Positions 2,370 through 42,188 of a stretch of 64,000 nt of DNA are shown in pieces; positions within the stretch are counted from its first letter, which is position 1, and each line of letters begins with the position of its first letter. The translations under genes and the position numbers were made by a program. The DNA is from an uncultured Thermodesulfobacteriota bacterium. Its GTDB lineage: Bacteria; Desulfobacterota; GWC2-55-46; JADFVP01. Below the pieces are notes generated by a model, which did no database searches, was not told the DNA's origin, and worked only from the letters and a program-made list of their open reading frames with translations. The stretch covers positions 4,466 to 68,465 of the forward strand of contig CAZMKZ010000002.1 in the NCBI GenBank assembly GCA_964567185.1, read 5' to 3'.

Positions 2370-2567
2370 TCACGTCTTGAAGACCTTATCCTTCTCGGAT
2401 ATATTGAGCCCCAGGGCCTTTATTATCTTACGCTTCGTATCGAGCCTGCAGGGAAAACCCTTTTCAATCCTGTCTATGGTCAGCGTCGATAGTCCCGCCT
2501 TTCTCGCAAGCTCAGTCTTGCTTAAAAGGATACGTTCTCTATACTCTTTTAATGTATTTTTCGACAT
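2370..2567 (-). CDS. XRE-family helix-turn-helix transcriptional regulator, 65 aa
   Basis: HTH_3 signature LSKTELARKAGLSTLTIDRIEKG. It lies 12 nt upstream of pilM on the same strand. Confidence 0.75.
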   Translation of the reverse strand: MSKNTLKEYRERILLSKTELARKAGLSTLTIDRIEKGFPCRLDTKRKIIKALGLNISEKDKVFKT

Positions 2568-2717: not shown

Positions 2718-2824
2718 AAAAACCCTCTTTCTTATCTCCTCAGATGCCATGCTTCAGGTGATTTATCAGGGGTCAATGCGCTTATTTTTCTTCAACTCAA
2801 TGTTTCCTTTTCATCCGGGTCTCT

Positions 2825-2847
2825 CCCCGCCGGCCTTGCCGGCGGGG
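2825..2847 (-). terminator. GC-rich stem-loop, a possible terminator of the minor-pilin operon
   Basis: A 10-bp perfect stem (ccccgccggc / gccggcgggg) with a 3-nt loop, about 50 nt downstream of the pilX-like stop. It has no clear U-tract. Confidence 0.3.
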
Positions 2848-2895
2848 AGGTTCCGGCATCTTATGCATATATGAGAAAGGGCGAAGCCTCTACTC

Positions 2896-4575
2896 TCAAC
2901 TTAGCTCCCTCCATTCCCTTCTCTCAATGGTCATGGTTCCGTAGTCCTGCCACCCCTGCGGCAGGTTCGTAACTGGTGTGTAGGTAAAGTTGGCGCTGGT
3001 ATTGCCGTCTCCGCCTACGTCAAGCTCACCGGGCTCTTCCGCCTCATTGCCGACAAGAAGGGTACCGTTCATGTTGAAGGTGGCCATTGTATTTGCTCCA
3101 TGGTCGTGTTCGGCCTCCACCTCCATCTCTTCGGTGGCTATTACTACGGCGCCGTTGACGGCGGTGCCCACGTTCACGTTAATGTCGCTGTACTCGGCCT
3201 TTATTTTTACTTCCTGGGCCACTAGGGCAAGGCTGTTGGCGGGCTTGAAGTTCATGGTGCCGGCCCCGCCCACTATCTCAAACTCGCCGGCCGGCTGGGA
3301 GTTGTTGGCCGCAGTGCCCACAAGTATGCTGGCCGTTATGTCCACCGAGGCATTGGAATCCGCTGGGCCAAAGAATTTAAAGTCATCCTGCGGGTCTATG
3401 ATGTTGACAACGCTGCTCGTGTAACCCGCGCCCGTGGGGTTGGTGTAGCTGTTGAACTGGTTGGCGTTCATGAAGGGCTCATCATCCTTGAGCTCGTCGG
3501 TACTAAAGGAGTAGGAACCTGACGTGCCCGAGCATGAGCCGATTACACCGTTCCAGTTCGGGTCCGTGCACCAGTAGACCGTATGGTTATAGGTCCCGTG
3601 ATGGTCATGATGATGGTCGCCGTTACAGGTGGTGCATACGGCCTGCACCGTGGCCTGCACCGTATAACTCGTTCCCATGGTGGTTATGGCGTAGTTTATG
3701 GGCCACTGCGTGCAGTTGGACCCGCAATCCGATGTGCTTCCCACCGCGGGCGTCATCATGAAGACCTGCTGATCCGCGAAGTTGGCCTGATTCTGATAGA
3801 AGGCAAAGTCAAGGACCGGCGGCACTACCACGGCGGCCGCGTCGTCACAGGACTGGAATTTGCCGCTGTTGCAGTTCGGCGTGATTTTTTTGTTGGATTG
3901 GGCCAGGGCCGCGCCAAGGTCGAAGTTGCCCTGAAGGGCAATCTCATTGCCGCCGTACATCTTGCCCGTGAATTTGCCGGGGTTGGAGCCTACGCCTTCA
4001 CCCTCGATACTGCCGTTACTGAATGCGGCGTAATCAAAGGCCGTTATGGCGTTTCTTACGATAAGGCCCGCCTTCCGCGTAACACCGTTCACGCTTCCAG
4101 TTGCCTCTACAAGAACGTCATTGGGGCCAAGGGTGGTATACTTATCGGGACGCGTGGAGTTAACACCCCTCCCGTAAGACCCGTTGGCGTCATAGACCTG
4201 TATGGCATAGGAGCCGTTAACAGCGCCCATGGCTATGGTGCCCTGTGTCTGGGCGGCCCACTGTGCGGCGTCGTCGGCGAGATTGCCGTCCTTGTTAAGA
4301 TCAGGGGCCCAGTCCGGGTCGTTTCTTATGTAGTTAATGGCGTTGCTCATGCCTGCCTCTGCCGTATTAAGGGCCTGCATGGACCTTGTTACATTACCGG
4401 CCACCTTCACATCCGTTGTGGAGGTGGTGATAATGGCCGCGCCGATAACGGCCATTATGCCCATTATCATCAGGGTTATGGCAAGGACCACACCCCTCTC
4501 GTCGCCGAGAAACCCGGCTATGGATATGCCGGCCTTTCTTTTTTTATGCTCTCTAACAGTTCTCATCATTATCAC
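2896..4575 (-). CDS. pilX: Giant PilX-like T4P minor pilin, 559 aa, with a Cys-flanked His-rich cluster
   Basis: The N-terminus matches the PilX_N pattern (hydrophobic segment, then AGN and AEAG). The long Thr/Ser/Gly-rich C-terminal extension includes CTTCNGDHHHDHHGTYNHTVYWC. Confidence 0.65.
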   Translation of the reverse strand: MIMMRTVREHKKRKAGISIAGFLGDERGVVLAITLMIMGIMAVIGAAIITTSTTDVKVAGNVTRSMQALNTAEAGMSNAINYIRNDPDWAPDLNKDGNLADDAAQWAAQTQGTIAMGAVNGSYAIQVYDANGSYGRGVNSTRPDKYTTLGPNDVLVEATGSVNGVTRKAGLIVRNAITAFDYAAFSNGSIEGEGVGSNPGKFTGKMYGGNEIALQGNFDLGAALAQSNKKITPNCNSGKFQSCDDAAAVVVPPVLDFAFYQNQANFADQQVFMMTPAVGSTSDCGSNCTQWPINYAITTMGTSYTVQATVQAVCTTCNGDHHHDHHGTYNHTVYWCTDPNWNGVIGSCSGTSGSYSFSTDELKDDEPFMNANQFNSYTNPTGAGYTSSVVNIIDPQDDFKFFGPADSNASVDITASILVGTAANNSQPAGEFEIVGGAGTMNFKPANSLALVAQEVKIKAEYSDINVNVGTAVNGAVVIATEEMEVEAEHDHGANTMATFNMNGTLLVGNEAEEPGELDVGGDGNTSANFTYTPVTNLPQGWQDYGTMTIERREWRELS

Positions 4576-4620
4576 CTCTTCTTATGGTTACTCGTTCAAA
4601 AAAATCCATGGCTGCGTTAA

Positions 4621-7600
4621 TCAGTTACAGCTCGTAGTTGACTGGGTGGTATTCTTATCAATGCCCGTAATACCGCAGTTTGCGTCCGTAAAGGCGCTCC
4701 TTGAAGCCGTGAGGCTCACGTTGATGGTCTTGTCATGATAGAGCTGGCCGGCGGCATATGTATATGTGCCGGGGTTCTGGCTGTCCTCCACCATTGTGCC
4801 GGTCTCCACCGTAGCGGCAGGCAGGCCCGTTATCACCGCCGATATCTTGGCCCCTGAGACAGGTAGCGAGTTTTCATCGGTAAGCACCACGGTGAGGCTC
4901 ACATTCTGGCCGCCGCTTCCGGTCCTGTCAACGGTCATGGCCTCCTTGAACCTCGAGTCCTGGTCATATGTATAGATACCCACGGAGGGCTCGGGCTGGA
5001 TATCATAATTGGCGTTGCTGTCCGTCATCATTACGTAATACCAGACCCTCTTGCCCGTGAGGGTTGGGATATGACTTGATGTGCAGGCCCCTGAAGAGGC
5101 CGTCTCATATGTATTTGTACTGCCCACCTGGCACATGGTAACGGCATTCCACCCTGAGGGAGTCGAGGAATAATCCGTAGCCGGAGCGGAAAAAGTAGTC
5201 TTATCCGTTGTGCTGTAGTAGAGCGTAGCCCCGGTTACAGCTATGCCGGTATCAGGGCTCACCGTGTCCTCAACGCTCACGTCATAGGATGTCCATGTGT
5301 AATTAGGGTCCTGGGTCCCCGTCTCCACGGTTACGTTCGCCGGGTTCACATTGGATATAGTGGGTGTTACGGGCCTGTCCTGCACGCTACCCGTTATGGT
5401 GGGTCCTACGGTCACGGGCACGGTAAAGGTGCTCGAATTGCAGGCCGCGCCGTCAAGGTCATTTGTATAGTTAAGGGTTACTATTATATTTTCGGAGCGC
5501 ATGTCCACGTAACCGGTCCCCGCGGAATCCCTGAAGTCGAGGGTGAACTCGTTGAGGCCCGTCGAGCCGTTAAGCCTCCTCAGCGAGGCCGTGGGCTCAA
5601 AGGTGGCAAAATCAACTACAAAGCCCGATGCCACGTCCGTATTGTTCCAGAGCGTATTGGCGCTGCCGCCAAAGGGTTTTAATACTACCTTGTGGAGCTT
5701 TGCCGTAGCATTGGCCCAGACAAAGGTAGCCGAGTTTATGGTAACAGAGCTATTTCCCGTGTTCTGTATCCCAATGGTTACCACGTTGTGCTGACCGCCG
5801 TTCAGCGGCGGGCTCACCGTGCCCGAAGTTACTACGGTGATAGCGGGATCCCAGGTTATGTTTGTGGGCATGACCGTCACCTCGGGGGAACTTGCGACGC
5901 TCTCATTAAGGGCGCAGTCAAGGGCCTTCACCGTGTAATAATAGGTGGTGCCCGCCGTTACCGTACTGTCGGCGTAACTCGTTGCCGTTACAGGCATGGA
6001 GTTGATCTTGGTATAAGGGCCGCCCGAAGTTGTGGCCCTGTACACATAGTACCCCACCACGTCGTTCTCCGAGGCTGGATTGAAGAGGTTTCCGTTCTCA
6101 CTGCCCGCAGAGGCCGTCCAGTTAACCGTGGACGTTGAGCACGTGGCCGTGGTAAGACTCGCCGGCGCCGATGGCGGCCCATAGTGCTTGGAGCCGGGCG
6201 AGCCGTCGCCGCAGGGGGCGGCCGTGGCCAGAGACGTGGCCCCTGCGCTGAAGTTTCCGCACCTGTCGTAGGCAAAGGCCCTGTAGTAATAGGTAGTGCC
6301 GAGGTATATCCCGTACGTATCTATAAGGGGATAGGTCTGCGCGGGAACAAGGGGCTCATAGTCCTTTACGTTGTTTGGTCCCACGGCGCCGGAGTCCTGC
6401 GCGCTCACGGGATACTGGTCCGTTCTTCGCAGTATCCTCACACCCTTGAGATCCGTGTCCGTGGGCGTTGCGTCGCTCATATATATCTTGTCCGAGGCCG
6501 GAACCGCAAGAAAGGGCGTGGGGTCGGCAGGCGGCACGGTCTCAAAGGGGCTCGTATTTGTCAGGCCGCTTGTGGGCGTGTCCGTGCCGCTCTTGGAACC
6601 ATCACCATAAACACCGCTCTGCATTGACAAGTTCTTTTCATTACCGGCGCAATCCCAGGAAAGAACCCTGTATATGAAGGGATAGGAAGGACAATTCGTT
6701 ACGGTAATATCGGCGTAGGTCAGGTGAGTGGAATCCAGCTCCGCCACCTGCGCGTATGTATCCCCGCCGTCATCGCTCCTGTAGACATGGTAGCCGCCCG
6801 TGTCTACGGAGACGCTGGGGTCCCAGGTCAGGGTCACAAGGCCGTCGCCGGCCGTGGCGTCAGTATTCGTCGGCAAATCAGGGCTCGTAACGTCATTTGG
6901 CTTTGTGTCCGCGGTTCCGCCCGTACCCGATATGGGCGTGGTAAAGGAGGTGTTCACATTGCCCGATGTGTCGTAACACTTCATGGCTATGTCATATTGA
7001 GTGCCGTTGGTAAGGCCCGTAAGGGTATAGGACTCCGTGGACCCGCCCGGAATATCTATAAGGCCCGTATAAAAACCCGCTCCAGTCGGCTTGTAATACA
7101 CCTTGTACCCCGCGGCGTCGGAGCTTGAGCTCTTTGTCCACGCCAGGTTAAGCCTGCCGCAGAGACCCGGGTCTGTTGACTGAATATTGGTGGGAAGGGC
7201 GCACTCCGTAACGTCCGTGGATTGCTGTATCCCCATGCACCTTAGCGAAACACTTGTTTCGAGGTTTACGGTATCTATCTTGTTGGTAGCTGGGTTGGGG
7301 TACTCCGTGGAGGCCGTAAGGGCTATGCCCACCCTGCGTATCCTGTCCCTGTTGGCCTGCGACTGTATGGGGGCCGGGATAAGCGCGCCCGTTTCGTCGT
7401 AATAGGTAAACTGAAGCCCCGTGATGTTGCCAGCAAGGTCAACGCCTGTGCCGTAGGCCCCGTAGCTGCTGCCGCTCCATACGGCGGAACTCCTCATTAA
7501 CTCTTTTGCCGCCGCGTCAAGCTCGTACTTTATCTTCCATGGTCCCAGATTGGGGTCAGGGTCCGAGTCGGACTCGAACTCAAGGACAGTGGAGTCGGCT

Positions 7601-7839
7601 GTGTTAATGGGCGTGTCCTTGTAATAACACCCGGCGGCACGCACCTCTTTGACCACCTTCTCCATGGTTATCCTGGTCTCCTGCTGTATCTCAAGGAGCC
7701 TGTCCTGACCCGTGGAGGCTCGCAAAAAATAATTATAAAGCGAGTAAACCGCCCCTATGACGGCCACGCCTATGGCCATGGCCACGAGAAGCTCTACAAG
7801 GGTGAAGCCTTTATCTCTTTTTAAAAGACGTATGTTCAT
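4621..7839 (-). CDS. pilW: Giant PilW-like T4P minor pilin, 1072 aa, with FN3-like repeats
   Basis: The N-terminus KGFTLVELLVAMAIGVAVIG is a prepilin cleavage/methylation motif followed by PilW-like sequence. Downstream are at least three FN3-like modules and many Cys pairs. Confidence 0.7.
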   Translation of the reverse strand: MNIRLLKRDKGFTLVELLVAMAIGVAVIGAVYSLYNYFLRASTGQDRLLEIQQETRITMEKVVKEVRAAGCYYKDTPINTADSTVLEFESDSDPDPNLGPWKIKYELDAAAKELMRSSAVWSGSSYGAYGTGVDLAGNITGLQFTYYDETGALIPAPIQSQANRDRIRRVGIALTASTEYPNPATNKIDTVNLETSVSLRCMGIQQSTDVTECALPTNIQSTDPGLCGRLNLAWTKSSSSDAAGYKVYYKPTGAGFYTGLIDIPGGSTESYTLTGLTNGTQYDIAMKCYDTSGNVNTSFTTPISGTGGTADTKPNDVTSPDLPTNTDATAGDGLVTLTWDPSVSVDTGGYHVYRSDDGGDTYAQVAELDSTHLTYADITVTNCPSYPFIYRVLSWDCAGNEKNLSMQSGVYGDGSKSGTDTPTSGLTNTSPFETVPPADPTPFLAVPASDKIYMSDATPTDTDLKGVRILRRTDQYPVSAQDSGAVGPNNVKDYEPLVPAQTYPLIDTYGIYLGTTYYYRAFAYDRCGNFSAGATSLATAAPCGDGSPGSKHYGPPSAPASLTTATCSTSTVNWTASAGSENGNLFNPASENDVVGYYVYRATTSGGPYTKINSMPVTATSYADSTVTAGTTYYYTVKALDCALNESVASSPEVTVMPTNITWDPAITVVTSGTVSPPLNGGQHNVVTIGIQNTGNSSVTINSATFVWANATAKLHKVVLKPFGGSANTLWNNTDVASGFVVDFATFEPTASLRRLNGSTGLNEFTLDFRDSAGTGYVDMRSENIIVTLNYTNDLDGAACNSSTFTVPVTVGPTITGSVQDRPVTPTISNVNPANVTVETGTQDPNYTWTSYDVSVEDTVSPDTGIAVTGATLYYSTTDKTTFSAPATDYSSTPSGWNAVTMCQVGSTNTYETASSGACTSSHIPTLTGKRVWYYVMMTDSNANYDIQPEPSVGIYTYDQDSRFKEAMTVDRTGSGGQNVSLTVVLTDENSLPVSGAKISAVITGLPAATVETGTMVEDSQNPGTYTYAAGQLYHDKTINVSLTASRSAFTDANCGITGIDKNTTQSTTSCN

Positions 7840-7841
7840 CT

Positions 7842-8288
7842 CTATCTCGCTATGTAGGTCCTGAATATGGTATTGTGCGACCCTACGGCGTCATTCCATA
7901 CCACCTTTACGGCAATGTCCTTGGCGTTTACGGGAAGGGCGCTATTGGTTATATAGGTCTCTCTCCTGAAAGAGGCGTGCCCCGCGATAGTGCCGAAGTC
8001 CTCTACCTGGTCCGGATTCACGCCGGCCAGGGGGTCGCTTGCCGCCACGGAGTCTACCACGCTGTCAAAGTTCAGCGCCGCGGTGCGCTCTATGCTCTCT
8101 ATGGTCTCACGTGCGAGGTTGGCGGCCTCAGTGGCGCGCCGTCCGTAATCCGTACTCCTTATAGTGCTCGTCATAAGCCCTGAGAGCGTTATAAGGGCCA
8201 CGCTTAGGATTACTATGCTTATCATTACCTCTATGAGCGTAAAGCCTTCTTCTCCTGAAACAGCTTTTTCTTTCATTAGTTTCACCAT
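7842..8288 (-). CDS. pilV: Type IV pilus minor pilin PilV
   Basis: EEGFTLIEVMISIVILSVALITLSGL, a class III signal followed by the PilV-type hydrophobic segment. 148 aa. Confidence 0.75.
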   Translation of the reverse strand: MVKLMKEKAVSGEEGFTLIEVMISIVILSVALITLSGLMTSTIRSTDYGRRATEAANLARETIESIERTAALNFDSVVDSVAASDPLAGVNPDQVEDFGTIAGHASFRRETYITNSALPVNAKDIAVKVVWNDAVGSHNTIFRTYIAR

Positions 8289-8905
8289 GCCGTTAATATC
8301 TTCACGCGGCCGCTTGCCGATGATACGGTAACCTTGTACTTGTCCGCGCTGTTGGCAGAGCCGTTCAGCTTTATCTCGGCAAGGGTGGCCGAGCCAAAGG
8401 GGTCAAAGGCAATTACCGCCGTGGTTCCGGTAGTATATGTAACTCCCCCTACGGTGACGCTGAATATATTCACTCCAGCCTCAAGGTCTTTTGCCGCTAT
8501 CTGCGGGTCCGCTGTCCATGGGTCCGTATCAGCGGCCCTTGTTACTACAAGATACCTCTTCGGAGCGGCGTCAAGGTCAAAACGCACGCCATACTTCTGC
8601 GTTGAGTTCACCGCCTTGCTCCTTGCGTACTGGAGCATGGAAAAGATATCCCTTGATGTGCTCTTGAGTTTCATATGGGGAAAGGTGGACGTCAAGAATG
8701 TAGGCGCGGCTATGGCGATGAGGGTGCCGAATATGGCCAGGACCACGAGTATCTCAACGAGGCTGAAGCCTCTCTGTGCCTTTTTCCCCCACCGGCGCGC
8801 CCTTCCGGAGCACCTGAGGGACAAAATCCCCATGAGGCCGAAAGCCCCTTGCAGGGGCGCCGCCGGAATACCGGCCTGTCTTCTGTTATCAACTGAACTC
8901 TTCAT
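8282..8905 (-). CDS. FimT/GspH-like T4P minor pilin with an unusually long (about 45 aa) leader
   Basis: QRGFSLVEILVVLAIFGTLIAIA pilin motif. A strong SD (AAGGAG) sits 7 nt before the ATG at 8905. An alternative internal start at MGILSL cannot be excluded. Confidence 0.65.
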   Translation of the reverse strand: MKSSVDNRRQAGIPAAPLQGAFGLMGILSLRCSGRARRWGKKAQRGFSLVEILVVLAIFGTLIAIAAPTFLTSTFPHMKLKSTSRDIFSMLQYARSKAVNSTQKYGVRFDLDAAPKRYLVVTRAADTDPWTADPQIAAKDLEAGVNIFSVTVGGVTYTTGTTAVIAFDPFGSATLAEIKLNGSANSADKYKVTVSSASGRVKILTAW

Positions 8906-8947
8906 AAAATACTCCTTACCATGGGTATATTCCCGTCATATAAACAA

Positions 8948-8962
8948 GCAACACCTGTGCCA
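8948..8962 (-). promoter_or_regulatory. sigma54 (RpoN) -24/-12 promoter for the minor-pilin operon
   Basis: The minus strand reads TGGCAC-AGGTG-TTGC, an exact consensus with 5-nt spacing. The predicted TSS near 8937 is about 30 nt upstream of the 8905 start. Confidence 0.75.
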
Positions 8963-8971
8963 AAGCATAAC

Positions 8972-9017
8972 CAACTGAAAAAAAAAGAGTTTTCCCCCAT
9001 GAGAGAGGGGAAAACTC
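8972..9017 (-). terminator. Rho-independent terminator of pilS-pilR
   Basis: An 11-bp perfect stem (gagttttcccc / ggggaaaactc) with a 9-nt loop, followed on the minus strand by nine Ts. It lies just downstream of the pilR stop. Confidence 0.8.
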
Positions 9018-9079
9018 CGCAAAGTTTTCACAAGTTGATTACTTTTTATATGAATGCGCCCCCTTTTCAGGAGGCCATC

Positions 9080-10432
9080 TCAGAGACCGTAGGTCTTTAT
9101 CTTGTACAGAAGCGCCCTCTGGCTTATCTCCAGGAGCTCAGCGGCGCGGGTCTTGTTGTTCTTGGTGGCCTCAAGGGCCCTCTTTATAAAGTCCCTTTCC
9201 ATGGCCTCGTGGGCCTTTTTAATGGAAAGGCCCACTGAAGACCCATCTCCGGGGTCCACCCTCGGTGAGGATACGCCCATTGGAAGAGATGACTTTTGTA
9301 TGAGATTGGCCTCCTCAAGTATCATGGCCCTCTCAATGACGTTCTCCAACTCGCGGACATTGCCGGGCCAGCCGTACTTCAGCAGGGCCCCAAGGGCGTC
9401 CTTCGAGAGGCCCTTCACCTTTTTTCTGAACTTTTTCGCGTACTTGCCGGTAAAATACGCGGCAAGCCTCTCTATATCTCCGGGCCTCTCCCGAAGCGGA
9501 GGCAAATCTATCTCAATGACGTTAAGCCTGTAATAAAGGTCTTCCCTGAACCTGCCCTTGCGTATCTCCCCGGCAAGGTCCTTGAGCGTGGCCGCCACTA
9601 CCCGCGTATCTATCTTCACGGACTTTGTGCCGCCCACACGCCTTATCTCGCCCTCCTGCAGGACGCGCAGGAGCTTTACCTGAAGCTCCATGGGCAGTTC
9701 GCCCACCTCGTCAAGGAATATGGTGCCTCCCACGGCCTCCTCGAAGAGCCCGGCCTTGTCGCGTCTGGCGTCCGTAAAGGCGCCCTTCACATGACCGAAG
9801 AGCTCGCTCTCAAGAAGGGGGCCGGGTATGGCCCCGCAGTTGACCGCCACAAAAGGCCCTCCAACGCGCTCCCCGCAGGTATGCAGGGCACGGGCCACAA
9901 GCTCCTTGCCCGTGCCGCTCTCGCCGCTTATGAGAACGGTGGTGCTGTAACTGGCTACCTTCTTTACAAGCTCCAGTATATCAAGCATCCTCGCGTCAAC
10001 GGTTATTATGTTATTAACGTCAAAACGCCGGGCAACCTCCTTCTTGAGCCTCCTGTTCTCCCGCTTGAGCTTTTCCCTCTCCTCGGCCTTTCTGAGGGTA
10101 AGTATAATTTCATCGGACTTGAAGGGCTTGGAGACGTAATCATAGGCCCCGAGCTTCATGCACTCTATGGCCGTCTCAATAGTGCCGTAGGCGCTCATCA
10201 TGATAACGGTATGATCTCCCGTCTTGCTCTCCTTGAGGGATCTAAGAAACTCAAGGCCGTCCATCTTGGGCATGCGTATGTCGCAGAGGATAAAGTCAAA
10301 GTCATCGGAGGCCAGGGCCTTGAGGGCGCGTGAGGCGTCTGCAAAGGCAGTGGCGTCATAACCCTCCCTCTTAAGCATTAAAGAGAGCACATGGCGCAGG
10401 CTCTCCTCGTCGTCTATAATCATAACATTCAT
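9080..10432 (-). CDS. pilR: Sigma54-dependent response regulator, NtrC family, PilR-like
   Basis: Receiver domain (IIDDE...DIRMP), AAA+ sigma54 activator domain (GESGTGKELVARALH, GAFTDA), and a C-terminal Fis-type HTH. Confidence 0.85.
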   Translation of the reverse strand: MNVMIIDDEESLRHVLSLMLKREGYDATAFADASRALKALASDDFDFILCDIRMPKMDGLEFLRSLKESKTGDHTVIMMSAYGTIETAIECMKLGAYDYVSKPFKSDEIILTLRKAEEREKLKRENRRLKKEVARRFDVNNIITVDARMLDILELVKKVASYSTTVLISGESGTGKELVARALHTCGERVGGPFVAVNCGAIPGPLLESELFGHVKGAFTDARRDKAGLFEEAVGGTIFLDEVGELPMELQVKLLRVLQEGEIRRVGGTKSVKIDTRVVAATLKDLAGEIRKGRFREDLYYRLNVIEIDLPPLRERPGDIERLAAYFTGKYAKKFRKKVKGLSKDALGALLKYGWPGNVRELENVIERAMILEEANLIQKSSLPMGVSSPRVDPGDGSSVGLSIKKAHEAMERDFIKRALEATKNNKTRAAELLEISQRALLYKIKTYGL

Positions 10433-11967
10433 CTTTGTCCCCTCCCGCAGGGCAATCTTACCGTAAAGGTAGAGCCCTCTGCCACCTTTGATTCAAAATC
10501 TATCTGCCCGCCGTAGGTCTTCAGGATGCTCTCTGAGACAAAAAGACCGAGCCCCGTGCCTTTTCCCACCTCTTTGGTCGTATAAAAGGGGTCGAATATC
10601 TTTCTGGCGTCTTCCTCGCTTATGCCGGTGCCGCTGTCCTTTATCCTTACGGAGACAAAATTCCGGTAGATCTCCTCTCCGGCGCGCAGGGGTTTGTCGC
10701 CCTTGCGCCTGCGAAGATTCGCGCCCTTGACGGGCATCTTCTGGAGCTGTGACTCCACCACTATCTCTCCGGCGCCGTCGGCGGCGCTCATGGATTGAGC
10801 AGCGTTTACGAGGAGATTGATAAAAACCTGCCTCAGCTTGCCCTCGTTTATCTTTACCGCAGGAAGGCTATCGCCAAGGCTGGTCTTAAGGACAATATCC
10901 TTGAAATCGGGATGTCCCTCAAGGCCGGCGATACTCTCAAGGAGCAGGGCGTTCACGTCAACAGGCTGAAGGGGTTTTTTCTCGGCCCTTGAAAACTCCA
11001 GAAATTCCCTCAATATGGAGTCTATCCTCGTAACCTCCCTGCCCGCCCTTACTATTATATCCTTCTCATCGGCGCTATCAAGAGAGCCGCTCTCAAGTAT
11101 CTGAAGATACCCGCCCACGGCTCCCAGCGGGTTGCCTATCTCGTGTGCTATACCGGCGGCAAGCCTTCCCACGGCCGCCAGCGTCGAAGACCTAAGGACC
11201 TCTTCCTGCGCGCTCACAAGCTCGCTATTGACCCTCTCAAGGGTGTTTATCTCCTCCTCTATTTTCCCGGCCATCTTGTTAAAAGACGAGGCCATAAGAC
11301 CTATCTCGTTATCGGAGTGTATATCCACCCTCTCGCCAAATGACCCTCCGGCGATGCGTGAGGCCGCCTCGGTGAGCCTTCTGATGGGGTTTATGATGGA
11401 GCCGGAGAGAAAGAAAAACCCGAAGCCTATTATTATGGCGCTATCCAGTATGATGTAGATTATAAGGAATTTTTTCACCCCCGCGAGCTCGCCCTTGATA
11501 TCGGCAAGCGAGATGGTGAAATCGAGGCGTCCCGCAATGGGCCCGCCATCCTTGAAGACGGCGCTTACATTGAGCAGACGCCCCGGCCCGGCCAGCCATC
11601 CGCCGCCAAGACGCCTTATCCTTATGCCGTCAAGCGCGCTTAGGGCCTTGCCGCCCCCCTCGGGCAACTCACCTTCTTTTACAACAATACGGCCCGATGG
11701 CGTGGTAAGGCGGTAGTCCCTTACCCCGGCACCGCGCATGACAACGCCGAGGAGCTGTAATGCCTTGTACTCATCGAGCCAGGGGCTTAACTTCGCCATG
11801 GATTCCCTGGCGAGGCGCGCCGTCTTTTCCGCCTCGCCGACCTTCCAGTAAAGGGCCCTCTCCTCTACAATCTTAATGCTCATGAGCCCTATGAAGCCCA
11901 CACCCGCAAGGGTGATAAGGGCGATTCCAAGCCCGAGCTGGGCGCGTATGCCTATCTTGAGGTTCAC
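10429..11967 (-). CDS. pilS: Sensor histidine kinase, PilS-like
   Basis: Two TM helices, HAMP, a HisKA H-box (AHEIGNPL) and HATPase_c (GTGLGL). It overlaps pilR by 4 nt. Confidence 0.8.
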   Translation of the reverse strand: MNLKIGIRAQLGLGIALITLAGVGFIGLMSIKIVEERALYWKVGEAEKTARLARESMAKLSPWLDEYKALQLLGVVMRGAGVRDYRLTTPSGRIVVKEGELPEGGGKALSALDGIRIRRLGGGWLAGPGRLLNVSAVFKDGGPIAGRLDFTISLADIKGELAGVKKFLIIYIILDSAIIIGFGFFFLSGSIINPIRRLTEAASRIAGGSFGERVDIHSDNEIGLMASSFNKMAGKIEEEINTLERVNSELVSAQEEVLRSSTLAAVGRLAAGIAHEIGNPLGAVGGYLQILESGSLDSADEKDIIVRAGREVTRIDSILREFLEFSRAEKKPLQPVDVNALLLESIAGLEGHPDFKDIVLKTSLGDSLPAVKINEGKLRQVFINLLVNAAQSMSAADGAGEIVVESQLQKMPVKGANLRRRKGDKPLRAGEEIYRNFVSVRIKDSGTGISEEDARKIFDPFYTTKEVGKGTGLGLFVSESILKTYGGQIDFESKVAEGSTFTVRLPCGRGQR

Positions 11968-12838: not shown

Positions 12839-13261
12839 TCACAGTGTGTCGGGGAGGTAATCCTTTCTTATCTTTTCCACCATGGCAACTATATTGGTGG
12901 CCTGTTTTATGGCGTCCCTTGAGTCCTTTTCCGAGATAACCTCGGCCGGTATTCCGCCGGGCAGGGCATCGGGAAAGCGTGAGGTCTTGTAGTAGATGTC
13001 AAGGGACGTAGTGCCGCCCACAAAGACCTTGAAGGACTCGTCATAGGTCATGGCCCTGTCAAGGAGATCGGCCACGGACCTGGTAACAAGGGCGTCCTCT
13101 CTCTGCAGGAAGAGAAAACCCCGCAGGGCCTTTGCCGCGGACTGCTGAGCCCAGAAACAGGCCGGCGCATGAAAACCGCCCTGCTGATTCCACTCCGAAA
13201 CCTTCAGGTCATACTCTGCCTGCCGCAGCCATCTGGCCGCCTCTTTAAGAAGAATCTCCAT
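12839..13261 (-). CDS. Orphan HEPN-domain protein
   Basis: Classic HEPN N-terminal pattern (AARWLRQAEYDLKVSEW...ACFWAQQSAAKALRGFLF) and C-terminal YYKTSRFPDALP. No adjacent nucleotidyltransferase gene. Confidence 0.75.
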   Translation of the reverse strand: MEILLKEAARWLRQAEYDLKVSEWNQQGGFHAPACFWAQQSAAKALRGFLFLQREDALVTRSVADLLDRAMTYDESFKVFVGGTTSLDIYYKTSRFPDALPGGIPAEVISEKDSRDAIKQATNIVAMVEKIRKDYLPDTL

Positions 13262-39680: not shown

Positions 39681-42188
39681 TTATCTTCTGAAGCCGTTTT
39701 CCATAAGACGCCACGACCTGTTGGGACGCTTCCCGGCAGGCGCCACAAAGGCCGTCAGATTGAAGTTAAAACTTGCCGAGTTCATGACACTGGGGTAGGG
39801 AGACCCGATGAAGGCGTTAAAGGTATAGGACCCTACCGGGGCTGTAAGGGGCACGGCCTGGGTAAGATGGGCCGACCTGGTGGCATTGGCGTTAAGACAC
39901 ACGTTCATGGGGCCGAAAAGAGCGCCGCCTGGAGGATAAGTCCCGCCGCCGGGAAGCGTAACTGTCTCCCAGAAGTCAACGCACTGCTTGGCGGCCGTGG
40001 TATTTACCGCCGTCACCGTATAGCCGAGGCTCCCGCCCTGGGCTACGGTGGTGGCGTCAGGGGTTATACTCAGTGTAACGGGAGACCCCGCGCCATCGCT
40101 TATCTTCGCAACAAAAACATCGTTAAGCCCGGCGTTAGTCCCCTGAATAGGGTTAACCACGGGGAAATTAGTGGAATCAGCCCCGCCCACCACATGGATG
40201 GCTCCGGAGCCGTCAATGGCTACGCCCCTTGCCGTGTCGTTACCGAACCCGCCAAGATAGGTGGAGTAGATAATGCTTGTGCCCGTGGAGTTAATCTTTG
40301 CTATAAAGGCGTCCCTTATGCCTCCGAAGGTCCCCTGTATGGGATTGACCATGGGAAAATTAAATGACCATGTGTGACCCGCCACGTAGACGTTATCGGC
40401 GCTGTCAATGGCTATGTCCCTGCCGCTGTCGCTGTCGACGCCGCCAAGATAGGTGGAGTAGATTATACGCCTGCCCGGAGGGGCGATCTTAACCACAAAG
40501 GCATCCTGTATGCCGGCAAAGGCCCCCTGTATGGGATTGACCATGGGAAAATTAGTAGAGGTGGTCCAGCCCGTAACGTAGATACTGCCGTTGCTGTTAA
40601 GGGCTATGCCCTTACTCTTTTCAGTGGCCGCGCCCCCGATGTATGTGGAAAAAACAAGGGAATTGCCAGCGGGGGTCAGCTTGAAGAGAACAACGTCTTT
40701 TACGCCTCCGAAGGTCCCCTGAAGGGGGGTTACAAGTGGAAAATTAGAAGACCAGCTATGGCCCGTAACATAGGCGGCCCCCGTGGCGTCAATGGCTATG
40801 GCGCGGCCGCCGTCAATGTTGGTTCCGCCAAGGTATGTTGAATATACAATGGCCGATCCGGCCGAATTTAACTTTGTTACAAAGGCGTCCTGAAGGCCCG
40901 CCATGGCACCCTGCACAGGGGTGCGCACGGGAAAATTAAAGGAAGAGGTCCATCCCGTAAGGTATACGGCGCCTGCGCCGTCAAGGGCTATGTCTTTACT
41001 TTTGTCGTCGCCCGACCCACCGAGGTACGTTGAAAAAACAAGGGCGTTGCCGGCGGGGCTCAATTTGGCCACAAAACCATCTTTCAGACCACCTCCAAAG
41101 GTCCCCTGAAGGGCCTTTGCCACGGGGAAGTTAAAGGACTCCGTATCACCGGTGATATAGGCGGCCCCTGTGGAGTCGACGGCGATAGCCAGGCTGTCCT
41201 CGTCATTGGTGCCGCCGAGGTATGTGGAATAAACAACAGCCGTACCGGCCGCATTTATTTTTGTTACAAAGGCGTCGCCCGTAAGGAGCCCGCCCCTGTT
41301 GATACCCTGCACAGGAGTGACTTTGGGGAAATTAGTGGACAAGGTCCATCCCGTTATATAGACCGCCCCGGAGCCGTCGACGGCTATGTCACGGCCAAAA
41401 TCAGCGGCGCTTCCGCCAAGGTAGGTGGAGTAGTTAAGCACCGGGTCTATTACAAGGTCTTTATCCTTCTCATAGGAGCCCACGACAAAGCCGTAGGAGG
41501 CCCTACCGTCACTGCCGCTCTCTATAACCCTGTAGCCGCCCTGCACCTCCACCCTTTTTCCATCTATCTCCTGATAGATAACGGGTTTCTCCTCTACGAT
41601 AACGCCGTTGTCAAGGGCTACCTCAAGGCTGCCGGCTTTTGTTATATTGATAGCCTTCACGCCTTCATAAGAAAACCTTACATCCGCCGGGTCGCCGCCG
41701 GACTTTACGATGATGTCGTGCTCTATCTTACGGTTATTCCCGTAGAATTTTACGTCGATATTCCTGTATACGTCCCTGTAGACCACGGCTCCGTAAACCG
41801 GCACGTCGCTTTGCCAGTTTTTGGCGTCTTTGCCCGTAAAGTAATTTACCCTGGTCTTCAGAAGCCCCTCGGCGCTCAGGTCCATGTCTTTTGCGGCGCC
41901 TGCGAAAGAGAGCCTGACTGCCTTTACCTTCTTGTCCTTAACAAGGGATAAGACAACGCCCTTATCCGTAAAAAAGGTTGCATGCCTTGCGCCTTTCTCG
42001 TAAAACCTTACGGACTTATCGGTCTGACCCTCGTTTCTGACAAAGTAGAGCGGGAGCCTGCCGTAAGATTCCATGACCGCGGCCTTTTGCATGGCCGTGG
42101 CCTTCGGGGCCTCTGCCGCGTAACCCGTTAAAGGGAGTAAGACAAAAAACTGTAAAAGCAGTAAGATGAACAACCTCATGACGCACAC
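39681..42188 (-). CDS. Large secreted protein with about 11 tandem SBBP beta-propeller repeats
   Basis: N-terminal signal peptide. Repeated about 48-aa units of the form STYLGG..D.a..IAvD..G.aYvTG.T.S.NFP. A C-terminal non-repeat domain. Confidence 0.8.
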   Translation of the reverse strand: MCVMRLFILLLLQFFVLLPLTGYAAEAPKATAMQKAAVMESYGRLPLYFVRNEGQTDKSVRFYEKGARHATFFTDKGVVLSLVKDKKVKAVRLSFAGAAKDMDLSAEGLLKTRVNYFTGKDAKNWQSDVPVYGAVVYRDVYRNIDVKFYGNNRKIEHDIIVKSGGDPADVRFSYEGVKAINITKAGSLEVALDNGVIVEEKPVIYQEIDGKRVEVQGGYRVIESGSDGRASYGFVVGSYEKDKDLVIDPVLNYSTYLGGSAADFGRDIAVDGSGAVYITGWTLSTNFPKVTPVQGINRGGLLTGDAFVTKINAAGTAVVYSTYLGGTNDEDSLAIAVDSTGAAYITGDTESFNFPVAKALQGTFGGGLKDGFVAKLSPAGNALVFSTYLGGSGDDKSKDIALDGAGAVYLTGWTSSFNFPVRTPVQGAMAGLQDAFVTKLNSAGSAIVYSTYLGGTNIDGGRAIAIDATGAAYVTGHSWSSNFPLVTPLQGTFGGVKDVVLFKLTPAGNSLVFSTYIGGAATEKSKGIALNSNGSIYVTGWTTSTNFPMVNPIQGAFAGIQDAFVVKIAPPGRRIIYSTYLGGVDSDSGRDIAIDSADNVYVAGHTWSFNFPMVNPIQGTFGGIRDAFIAKINSTGTSIIYSTYLGGFGNDTARGVAIDGSGAIHVVGGADSTNFPVVNPIQGTNAGLNDVFVAKISDGAGSPVTLSITPDATTVAQGGSLGYTVTAVNTTAAKQCVDFWETVTLPGGGTYPPGGALFGPMNVCLNANATRSAHLTQAVPLTAPVGSYTFNAFIGSPYPSVMNSASFNFNLTAFVAPAGKRPNRSWRLMENGFRR

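Follow-up and report, generated by a model that had tools for sequence, protein, structure and literature searches.

The window, that is the whole 64,000-nucleotide stretch of DNA analysed here from an uncultured Thermodesulfobacteriota bacterium, carries a conserved operon of four minor-pilin genes. It is probably a self-contained unit under sigma-54 control whose products form the core set that primes a type IVa pilus and sits at its tip, where modular forms of PilW and PilX would replace PilY1. The cassette is an unusually large case within a design that has already been described (modular pilins, solenoid PilX), and it does not call for a new category of system.

Results

The minor-pilin operon and its neighbourhood

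The four genes occupy positions 2896-8905 of the minus strand and encode a GspH/FimU-like protein of 207 aa, a PilV-like protein of 148 aa, a PilW-like protein of 1072 aa and a PilX_N protein of 559 aa. The canonical gene order H-V-W-X (FimT/GspH-like, PilV, PilW, PilX), which an earlier note on this DNA had recognised, was thus confirmed. Matches to Pfam, all above the curated cut-offs, were N_methyl and GspH for the first gene, N_methyl for the second, N_methyl and fn3 for the third and PilX_N for the fourth. Genes 1 and 2 overlap and the gap between genes 2 and 3 is 2 nt, and the genes are therefore assigned to one operon. Class III signal peptides are present in the first three products, with the prepilin motifs RG↓FSLVE, EG↓FTLIE and KG↓FTLVE, respectively.

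The GspH/FimU-type minor pilin (8282-8905, minus strand) has 207 aa when read from an ATG preceded by an SD sequence, the length of its leader being uncertain. It scored 35.7 bits against N_methyl and, over residues 84-197, 33.7 bits against GspH (PF12019; cut-off 21), while its score against the NCBIfam GspH equivalog was under the cut-off. The second gene (7842-8288, minus strand) can be called PilV-like, of the PilV/GspI type, on the grounds of its size, its second position in the operon and a score of 35.2 bits against PilV TIGR02523, which lies below the cut-off of 52.2 and was obtained from an alignment of only the N-terminal 57 residues.

The cassette is flanked by pilus machine genes, with pilD and a pilS/pilR-like pair upstream and XRE-pilMNOPQ downstream. 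PilM was identified by TIGR01175 (275 bits), and PilN, PilO, PilP, PilQ and PilD were recognised by Pfam; on these assignments the neighbourhood, PilM-PilN-PilO-PilP-PilQ with a prepilin peptidase, is that of a type IVa pilus system. PilQ is unusually long (1243 aa) and contains AMIN domains. Neither a major pilin nor pilB, pilT or pilC was found in the 64-kb window, and it holds no fifth pilin or any further GFxxxE prepilin.

An intrinsic terminator 3' of the pilR-like gene (8986-9018, minus strand; 13-bp stem followed by T8) divides pilSR from the cassette. A perfect -24/-12 sigma-54 box, TGGCAC-N5-TTGCT, lies at 8947-8962 on the minus strand, 42 nt 5' of the first ATG, and is the sole match with zero mismatches in 64 kb. 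Of 11 related loci, 9 have the box ahead of the cassette, one of these in a different genomic context. Since the cassette, with a promoter of its own, lies directly behind the PilS/PilR-like pair, we infer from this adjacency and from the sigma-54 box that the pair controls it. The PilS-like protein differs from Pseudomonas PilS in its two transmembrane segments and its periplasmic domain. The 3' end of the operon is probably marked by a GC-rich hairpin about 45 nt past the PilX-like stop (2823-2849, minus strand; -35.8 kcal/mol, z -5.5), which has no U-run.

The PilW-like protein

The third gene (4621-7839, minus strand; 1072 aa, N_methyl and fn3) begins with a PilW-type pilin module, residues 1-205 (7225-7839), made up of the KG↓FTLVE site, an alpha-1 helix, a beta-sheet and the cysteines C71 and C201. 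In Pfam, with E values up to 1 admitted, neither the query nor any of 16 members of its family directly matched PilW (PF16074/PF27121) or T2SSJ/GspJ; likewise, Pfam and NCBIfam searches with the whole protein and with the isolated module did not match PilW or GspJ, and the match of a profile of the module to PDB sequences was confined to the N-terminal helix. In a large protein collection the profile of residues 1-205 retrieved proteins of 199-363 aa, named PilW or carrying PF16074/PF27121, with E values of 1e-23 to 1e-9 and a coverage of 80-99%. In the alignment, normal PilW proteins of 199-250 aa stop at ...CRNMGL, level with module residue ~205. The J-type subunit can thus be described as a complete PilW module with a chain of about 870 residues grafted at its exact C-terminal end. 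With N_methyl and fn3 recognised in one polypeptide, it is a modular pilin in the sense of Raynaud et al. 2021. Its giant size, pointed out in the earlier note, makes it a true outlier, as the 118 nearest relatives of the PilW module are 122-363 aa long.

According to the predicted structure, the grafted chain consists of seven beta-sandwich domains, three to four of them FN3 and three others. FN3-1 and FN3-2 occupy residues 206-413 (6601-7224, minus strand); residues 441-658 (5866-6519, minus strand) comprise FN3-4 (553-658) and, before it, a domain (441-552) that resembles a diverged FN3 and was modelled with lower confidence; residues 659-1072 (4624-5865, minus strand) form three more beta-sandwich domains, of which the last, 963-1072, is Ig-like. 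Profile comparison showed FN3-1, FN3-2 and FN3-4 to be mutually related (E 6.5e-9, 7.8e-16 and 4e-4), with domain 441-552 appearing as a weak, diverged FN3 (E 0.001-0.004), in agreement with the previous count of at least three FN3 modules. Pfam searches with the seven isolated domains gave weak sub-threshold hints only (DUF4352, Big_1, YtkA), those to DUF4352 and Big_1 in 659-1072. The structure was predicted with a pLDDT of 80-94 for residues 659-1072 and of 55-70, a modest confidence, for the pilin module and the third FN3-like domain; the pTM of 0.45 makes the inter-domain arrangement unreliable.

The many Cys pairs noticed earlier were also substantiated: the protein contains 16 Cys, all invariant in 22 homologues, 14 of them in the grafted chain and the remaining two being C71 and C201 of the pilin module. 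The last domain is the most variable part, with 46% identity to the query versus 61-72% elsewhere. Neither the PilW-like nor the PilX-like protein has a recognisable ligand-binding domain whose specificity is known.

The PilX-like protein

The fourth gene (2896-4575, minus strand) encodes 559 aa, or 556 according to public gene callers. Residues 1-175 (4051-4575) contain a leader, a hydrophobic helix without Glu5 (ERG↓VVLAI) and a pilin sheet of the GspK/PilX type; by the presence of PilX_N (PF14341) and the absence of Glu5, the protein is recognisable as a GspK/PilX-type cap pilin. The model joins to this pilin fold a triangular, ice-binding-protein-like beta-solenoid, which together with an invariant C-terminal RREWREL and the stop codon makes up residues 176-559 (2896-4050, minus strand). 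In the type represented by ComZ and cyanobacterial PilX, the solenoid is an insertion between the penultimate and the last beta-strand of the pilin sheet; in the present model the C-terminal 16 residues, including RREWREL, through which the chain would return to the sheet, have a pLDDT <50. A PilX profile gave no significant match to PDB sequences. Fold comparison detected similarity to ComZ and GspK, the best matches being ice-binding and adhesin solenoids, not ComZ. The solenoid region is acidic (pI 4.1, 40 Asp/Glu vs 10 Lys/Arg), as is the whole protein (pI 4.3). Its length, which had been considered exceptional, proved not to be so: 144 remote PilX_N relatives have a median of 378 aa, and 11 of them reach at least 500 aa. 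A second, orphan PilX-like paralogue with 40% identity was noticed on another contig of the metagenome-assembled genome OFTM14.

Conservation of the cassette

Homologues were drawn from more than 20 independent assemblies (NCBI, JGI, ENA, Logan). Each large ORF retains its full length across more than 20 protein clusters (46-100% identity). The PilW-like protein was compared in 22 sequences of 1054-1111 aa and the PilX-like protein in 25 sequences of 533-571 aa, with identities of 46-80%, and the cassette is found as a unit in three genomic contexts. A distant lineage shows the same layout (PilS-PilR-163-171-1494-467 aa-XRE), with a PilW of 1494 aa. These comparisons show that a clade of uncultured Thermodesulfobacteriota has retained both the giant PilW and the solenoid PilX.

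The earlier note had named frameshift fusion of normal-sized minor pilins to separate adhesins as something that would overturn its reading, and an assembly error with the same effect was considered alongside it. In favour of such an artefact we found nothing apart from one low-quality assembly (L018) with a homologue split into 722 + 375 aa. Uninterrupted ORFs throughout the assemblies, an identical large ORF on two separate JGI contigs and even conservation over the whole length reduce its likelihood to practically nil, and full-length conservation leads us to reject it.

PilY1 and the XRE gene

PilY1 was not found in the 64-kb window. Its beta-propeller (PF05567) is absent from the four cassette proteins and from another 20 large ORFs in the window, from the Pfam annotation of 7 related loci, and from the neighbours of the orphan paralogues. 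In about 17 loci no PilY1 lies in or adjoins the cassette, which in every related locus examined ends at the PilX-like gene. The observation that no pilY1 or pilE follows therefore holds for the window and for the related loci, and the PilY1-like propeller whose presence in the operon continuation would have spoken against the initial reading was not found there. Two candidates were set aside: an SBBP beta-propeller protein (39681-42188), which belongs to another Pfam family and lies 31 kb off with housekeeping genes between, and a 1487-aa protein beside an orphan PilX paralogue (locus L019), which is without a PilY1 domain.

The XRE gene, which the earlier note placed in the position of pilY1, is separated from the cassette by a strong hairpin and a sigma-70-like promoter of its own; it lies 11 nt from pilM and is kept there in 14 loci. 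These features identify it as the first gene of the next operon, XRE-pilMNOPQ, so that neither the proposed position nor a role as a functional stand-in for PilY1 could be upheld.

Discussion

In type IVa pili, the roles of adhesin, plug and mechanosensor are usually ascribed to PilY1; many lineages are without it, and PilW in Myxococcus is reportedly PilY1-dependent. In the operon described here, cleavage by PilD would be followed by assembly of the four proteins into a priming complex in the inner membrane. The bulk of the PilX solenoid could then cap or 'plug' the tip, and the PilW stalk could project its distal binding domain, enabling the tip to act as an adhesin without a separate PilY1; the neighbouring PilR-like activator would turn on expression through sigma-54. 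The lack of PilY1 at about 17 loci, together with pilins that bear bulky non-pilin modules in conserved single polypeptides, fits the earlier suggestion that tip and adhesin functions are built into the giant pilins. This part of the suggestion is plausible; the novelty claimed for it and the replacement by XRE did not stand.

A more far-reaching version, which we put forward only tentatively, would have the type IVa pilus of this clade obligately PilY1-free, with the PilX solenoid as the plug, a disulfide-stapled PilW stalk with its fast-evolving distal domain as adhesin or sensor, and the tip complex, not the major pilin, as the direct target of the PilS/PilR-like sigma-54 control. If true, it would make tip composition, and not filament supply, the regulated step, and would provide a PilW-anchored counterpart of PilY1.

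Alternatively, the giant pilins could have been added without replacing anything: PilY1, encoded elsewhere, would still cap the pilus, and PilW and PilX would contribute binding specificity or constitute one alternative tip set. Other Thermodesulfobacteriota do possess PilY1 homologues (PMC13190605), our view of the source genome spans about 68 kb, and the orphan paralogue in OFTM14 may mean that more than one tip set exists. However, our searches for PF05567 found no such protein in the window or among the neighbours of any cassette or orphan paralogue, every locus has the PilX-like gene as the last of the cassette, and a comparable solenoid-bearing pilin is known from the PilY1-free precedents of Thermus ComZ and cyanobacterial PilX; we therefore regard simple addition as rather unlikely.

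Replacement of PilY1 at the tip of a type IVa pilus also has to be weighed against a complex which stays in the cell. In this reading a short pseudopilus, or a priming complex in the periplasm, would use its bulky domains to gate or plug the very large secretin, in the manner of a type II secretion piston and not of a surface adhesin. An H-I-J-K quartet without PilY1 is the arrangement of type II secretion, no major pilin is nearby, and PilQ is unusually long; nevertheless, the neighbours PilM/N/O/P/Q are of the type IVa kind, not GspC/L/M, and a chain of seven FN3/Ig-type modules that bear disulfides and end in a variable domain is typical of surface-exposed adhesins, which makes a complex confined to the cell improbable. 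The precedent of ComZ, which binds DNA and has a proposed tip location (PMC6561018), raises the thought that the cassette primes a competence (DNA-uptake) pilus with the solenoid PilX as a ComZ-like DNA receptor. We consider this very improbable, as the solenoid is strongly acidic whereas DNA binding by ComZ is lysine-dependent, its best structural matches are not to ComZ, and the window yielded no competence genes.

Among known systems, the type IVa priming and tip complexes of Pseudomonas aeruginosa (fimU-pilVWXY1Y2E) and Myxococcus xanthus (minor-pilin/PilY1 clusters) share with the cassette the gene order, the prepilin motifs, the linkage to pilMNOPQ and, as cap subunit, a PilX_N protein that lacks Glu5 (PMC5979040, PMC7541494). 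The cassette differs from them in being without PilY1 and PilE, in a PilW that is 3-5x longer owing to its C-terminal beta-sandwich chain, in the beta-solenoid on PilX, and in a promoter of the sigma-54 type behind a PilS/PilR-like pair instead of FimS-AlgR control. The type II secretion tip GspH-GspI-GspJ-GspK (PDB 3ci0), in contrast, has Gsp machinery neighbours, and there the extra domain of GspK is alpha-helical and GspJ has no extension.

The architecture, which the earlier note held to be not well described, has published parallels for both large proteins. ComZ of Thermus thermophilus, whose structure is solved (PDB 6qvi; PMC6561018), is a putative tip pilin and, like the cassette PilX, has a bulky beta-solenoid joined to its pilin fold. 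Cyanobacterial PilX, whose solenoid was proposed to take the PilY1 'plug' role (bioRxiv 10.64898/2026.02.12.705559), likewise has a triangular ice-binding-protein-like solenoid, and the structures nearest to it are again ice-binding proteins and adhesive solenoids; its cassettes are PilY1-free too, and the functional hypothesis is the one reached for the present DNA in the earlier note. It differs in belonging to another phylum, in a sequence relationship found only over the PilX_N helix, and in that a giant PilW was not reported for the cyanobacterial sets. The present cassette is a third independent case, after Thermus and cyanobacteria, of a cap pilin with a solenoid.

As for PilW, modular pilins are widespread, FN3 (IPR003961) is among the 15 commonest add-ons, and the parallel to PilY1 was drawn explicitly (PMC8179133). 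A small complete pilin followed by C-terminal modules is found in PilB (vWA) and PilC (lectin) of Streptococcus sanguinis and in CofB of ETEC (PMC8179133, PMC9934059), as here, although unlike in PilB and PilC no binding module of known specificity was recognised. In contrast to these, our carrier is a PilW-type core priming pilin and belongs to the type IVa system of a diderm. The cassette demonstrates that a PilW subunit can carry a very long adhesin-like stalk. Its graft point, cleanly at the end of the module, recommends it as a natural system in which to study how a core priming pilin carries bulky cargo and how the cargo gets through the secretin, and to follow the evolution of tip specificity. 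With its seven-domain add-on, the protein (1072 aa, and up to 1494 aa in relatives) exceeds the extreme of 860 residues quoted in that survey (PMC8179133).

Organization of the cassette

The cassette has a promoter of the sigma-54 type and encodes four core minor pilins, one each of types H, I, J and K (GspH/FimU, GspI/PilV, GspJ/PilW and GspK/PilX classes), two of which bear module grafts. Its closely packed ORFs, all on the minus strand, encode a GspH-like protein of 207 aa (8282-8905; Pfam N_methyl and GspH), a PilV-like protein of 148 aa (7842-8288; N_methyl), a PilW-like protein of 1072 aa (4621-7839; N_methyl and fn3) and a PilX-like protein of 559 aa (2896-4575; PilX_N). These Pfam matches exceed the curated cut-offs; NCBIfam similarities to PilV, GspK and a prepilin-peptidase-dependent protein were all sub-threshold. 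The 5' neighbours encode a prepilin peptidase, a HAMP histidine kinase and a sigma-54 response regulator, and the 3' neighbours a 65-aa XRE protein, PilM, PilN and PilO; in JGI Ga0256747_1000021, a public contig containing the window sequence, PilP and a 1243-aa PilQ come next. ORF calls, Pfam and flanking genes confirmed the sizes, the gene order and the lack of pilY1 and pilE reported in the earlier note.

A terminator with a 13-bp stem and T8 tail (9018-8986, minus strand) lies 3' of the pilR-like gene, and a perfect sigma-54 box, TGGCACAGGTGTTGCT (8962-8947, minus strand), 42 nt 5' of the first ATG. This box is the sole zero-mismatch match within 64 kb. Of 11 related loci, 9 also have it 5' of their cassette, among them L004, a locus with a different neighbourhood where only the four genes travel together, as a unit. 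Elsewhere in the clade the order is ArgJ-HEPN-PilD-PilS-PilR-(four genes)-XRE-PilMNO. A more distant lineage (locus L020) has PilS-PilR-163 aa-171 aa-1494 aa (N_methyl + fn3)-467 aa (PilX_N)-XRE, and locus L021 has 167-165-1484 aa.

The slot directly behind the PilS/PilR-like pair, terminator and perfect sigma-54 box (8947-10432, 10429-11967), taken here by the cassette, is in many bacteria occupied by the major pilin gene (pilA). Neither a major pilin nor pilB, pilT or pilC was found within the 64-kb window. The kinase differs from Pseudomonas PilS in having two transmembrane segments and a periplasmic domain. The GspH-like prepilin leader (8771-8905, minus strand) would measure 45 residues if translation starts at the ATG preceded by a Shine-Dalgarno sequence, or 21 if it starts at the next Met; relatives have leaders of about 15-17 residues and do not conserve the additional N-terminal part.

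A hairpin of very high stability (-35.8 kcal/mol, z -5.5) comes after the PilX-like stop codon. The AT-rich stretch between it and the XRE gene contains a sigma-70-like promoter (2664-2635), and pilM lies beyond. It had been proposed that the XRE gene occupies the place of pilY1. This was not borne out, since the gene (XRE/HTH_3; 2370-2567, minus strand) has its own promoter, pilM begins 11 nt further on, and its place is conserved in 14 loci, L020 included (identity down to 62% in the distant lineage); it is therefore the first gene of the pilMNOPQ unit, and its product may be a dedicated regulator of that unit.

The two large proteins

A frameshift fusion as the source of the giant ORFs was excluded because both proteins have full-length relatives, evenly conserved from end to end. 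Those of the 1072-aa protein measure 1054-1111 aa and fall into 24 clusters (48-100% identity; NCBI, JGI, ENA and Logan assemblies), with 16 of 16 cysteines invariant; the 559-aa protein has 31 relatives, almost all of 533-571 aa (46-100% identity). All named sources are MAGs of uncultured Thermodesulfobacteriota or 'Deltaproteobacteria'.

Direct HMMs recognized no PilW or GspJ domain in the giant protein. A profile of residues 1-205, on the other hand, finds ordinary proteins of 199-363 aa, named PilW by JGI/NCBI or bearing PF16074/PF27121 (E down to 1e-23, module coverage 80-99%). As these end, in the alignment, at a conserved ...CRNMGL terminus exactly level with residue ~205, the giant protein is a complete PilW module with the remainder grafted onto its C-terminal end. 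Its AlphaFold model (pLDDT 78, pTM 0.45) comprises a long alpha-1 helix, a small sheet and seven all-beta domains. Residues 441-552 form a weak, diverged FN3, and residues 659-812, 813-962 and 963-1072 are modelled as beta-sandwiches with no significant Pfam match. Variability is highest in the last domain (mean identity 46% vs 61-72% in the others). The mature protein has 112 kDa and pI 4.4. An acidic loop, ESDxDPDPxxGPW (residues 89-100; 7540-7575, minus strand), is invariant; ordinary PilW proteins carry there a DxDxDG-type, calcium-site-like motif, and model confidence at this site is low in the giant protein.

The PilX-like protein begins with a PilX_N/GspK-type helix, and position 5, counted from the predicted cleavage site (ERG|VVLAI), has Ile instead of Glu; missing Glu5 is the feature of the cap subunit (summarised in bioRxiv 10.64898/2026.02.12.705559). 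Its architecture, a pilin part with a beta-solenoid, is that published for Thermus ComZ (PMC6561018). When 1.8 billion representatives were searched exhaustively with a profile, only six proteins scored below 1e-30, which makes the full-length family a narrow one; 4427 proteins share the PilX_N end. The best 144 of the remote matches have a median length of 378 aa, with 11 longer than 500 aa; large PilX_N proteins are thus common, and the 559-aa size, thought exceptional before, is not remarkable in itself.

A loop rich in His, CTTCNGDHHHDHHG, with two extra Cys (residues 314-327; 3595-3636, minus strand) occurs in the closest relatives only, is replaced by a Lys/Asp-rich loop in one relative and is missing from more distant ones; it could bind metal at the protein surface. 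The C-terminal RREWREL (residues 553-559; 2899-2919, minus strand), invariant in 25 of 25 homologues and modelled at pLDDT <50, may serve to dock on a partner pilin or to complete the pilin sheet. Two MAGs (contigs L019, 6957-14768, and L015, 8378-10027) encode orphan PilX-like paralogues (40% identity) with no H/V/W genes beside them. In L019 the paralogue contains a long poly-Asp/Glu/Ser insertion; on its 3' side are encoded a 218-aa protein and a secreted protein of 1487 aa (SdrD_B-like fragment only, no PilY1 domain), and on its 5' side a LuxR-type two-component pair.

Possible role of the cassette

PF05567 is absent from the four cassette proteins, from 20 further large ORFs in the window, all housekeeping genes, and from the cassette surroundings in related loci, in agreement with the claim that no pilY1 adjoins the cassette. 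The window holds no further GFxxxE prepilin. An 835-aa SBBP protein with DUF7948 and four beta-propeller repeats (39681-42188, minus strand) belongs to a family other than PilY1 and lies unlinked, 31 kb off.

We consider it probable that the giant minor pilins take over tip functions. From what is known of type IVa and type II systems (PMC7541494, PMC5979040), the four proteins would be cleaved by PilD and assembled as a priming complex, with PilX, lacking Glu5, on top. The PilX solenoid would then form a bulky cap, elsewhere provided by PilY1, and the seven beta-sandwich domains of PilW, stabilised by conserved cysteines, a stalk showing its variable last domain outward as adhesin. The main competing explanation, that PilY1 is encoded elsewhere and the modules are additions, is appreciably less probable; PilY1 is present in other Thermodesulfobacteriota (PMC13190605). 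A periplasmic pseudopilus role for the cassette seems unlikely. Slightly less likely still is a DNA receptor of ComZ type: the solenoid here is strongly acidic (pI 4.1), which argues against a function that in ComZ is lysine-dependent.

The tip architecture had also been called not well described, a view that the literature does not sustain. Modular pilins are widespread and number >1,200 proteins in 264 architectures; FN3 (IPR003961) is one of the top 15 modules, and Raynaud et al. liken them explicitly to modular PilY1 (PMC8179133); the structure of a solenoid-bearing tip pilin has been solved for ComZ (PMC6561018), and in cyanobacteria such pilins were proposed to replace the PilY1 plug (bioRxiv 10.64898/2026.02.12.705559). 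What is specific here is that a core subunit, PilW, carries the add-on in a diderm type IVa system, that the add-on is unusually long (1072-1494 aa vs the 860-residue extreme quoted in the PMC8179133 survey), and that it is combined with a PilX of the solenoid kind within a sigma-54 cassette at the slot where pilA usually follows pilSR.

A 140-aa HEPN-domain protein (12839-13261, minus strand) is encoded between argJ and pilD, a position kept clade-wide (58-95% identity). The PilQ secretin on the window's own contig (L001, 18296-22027; AMIN, STN, Secretin_N and Secretin) is, at 1243 aa, far above the usual length, and a relative (L005) has 969 aa.
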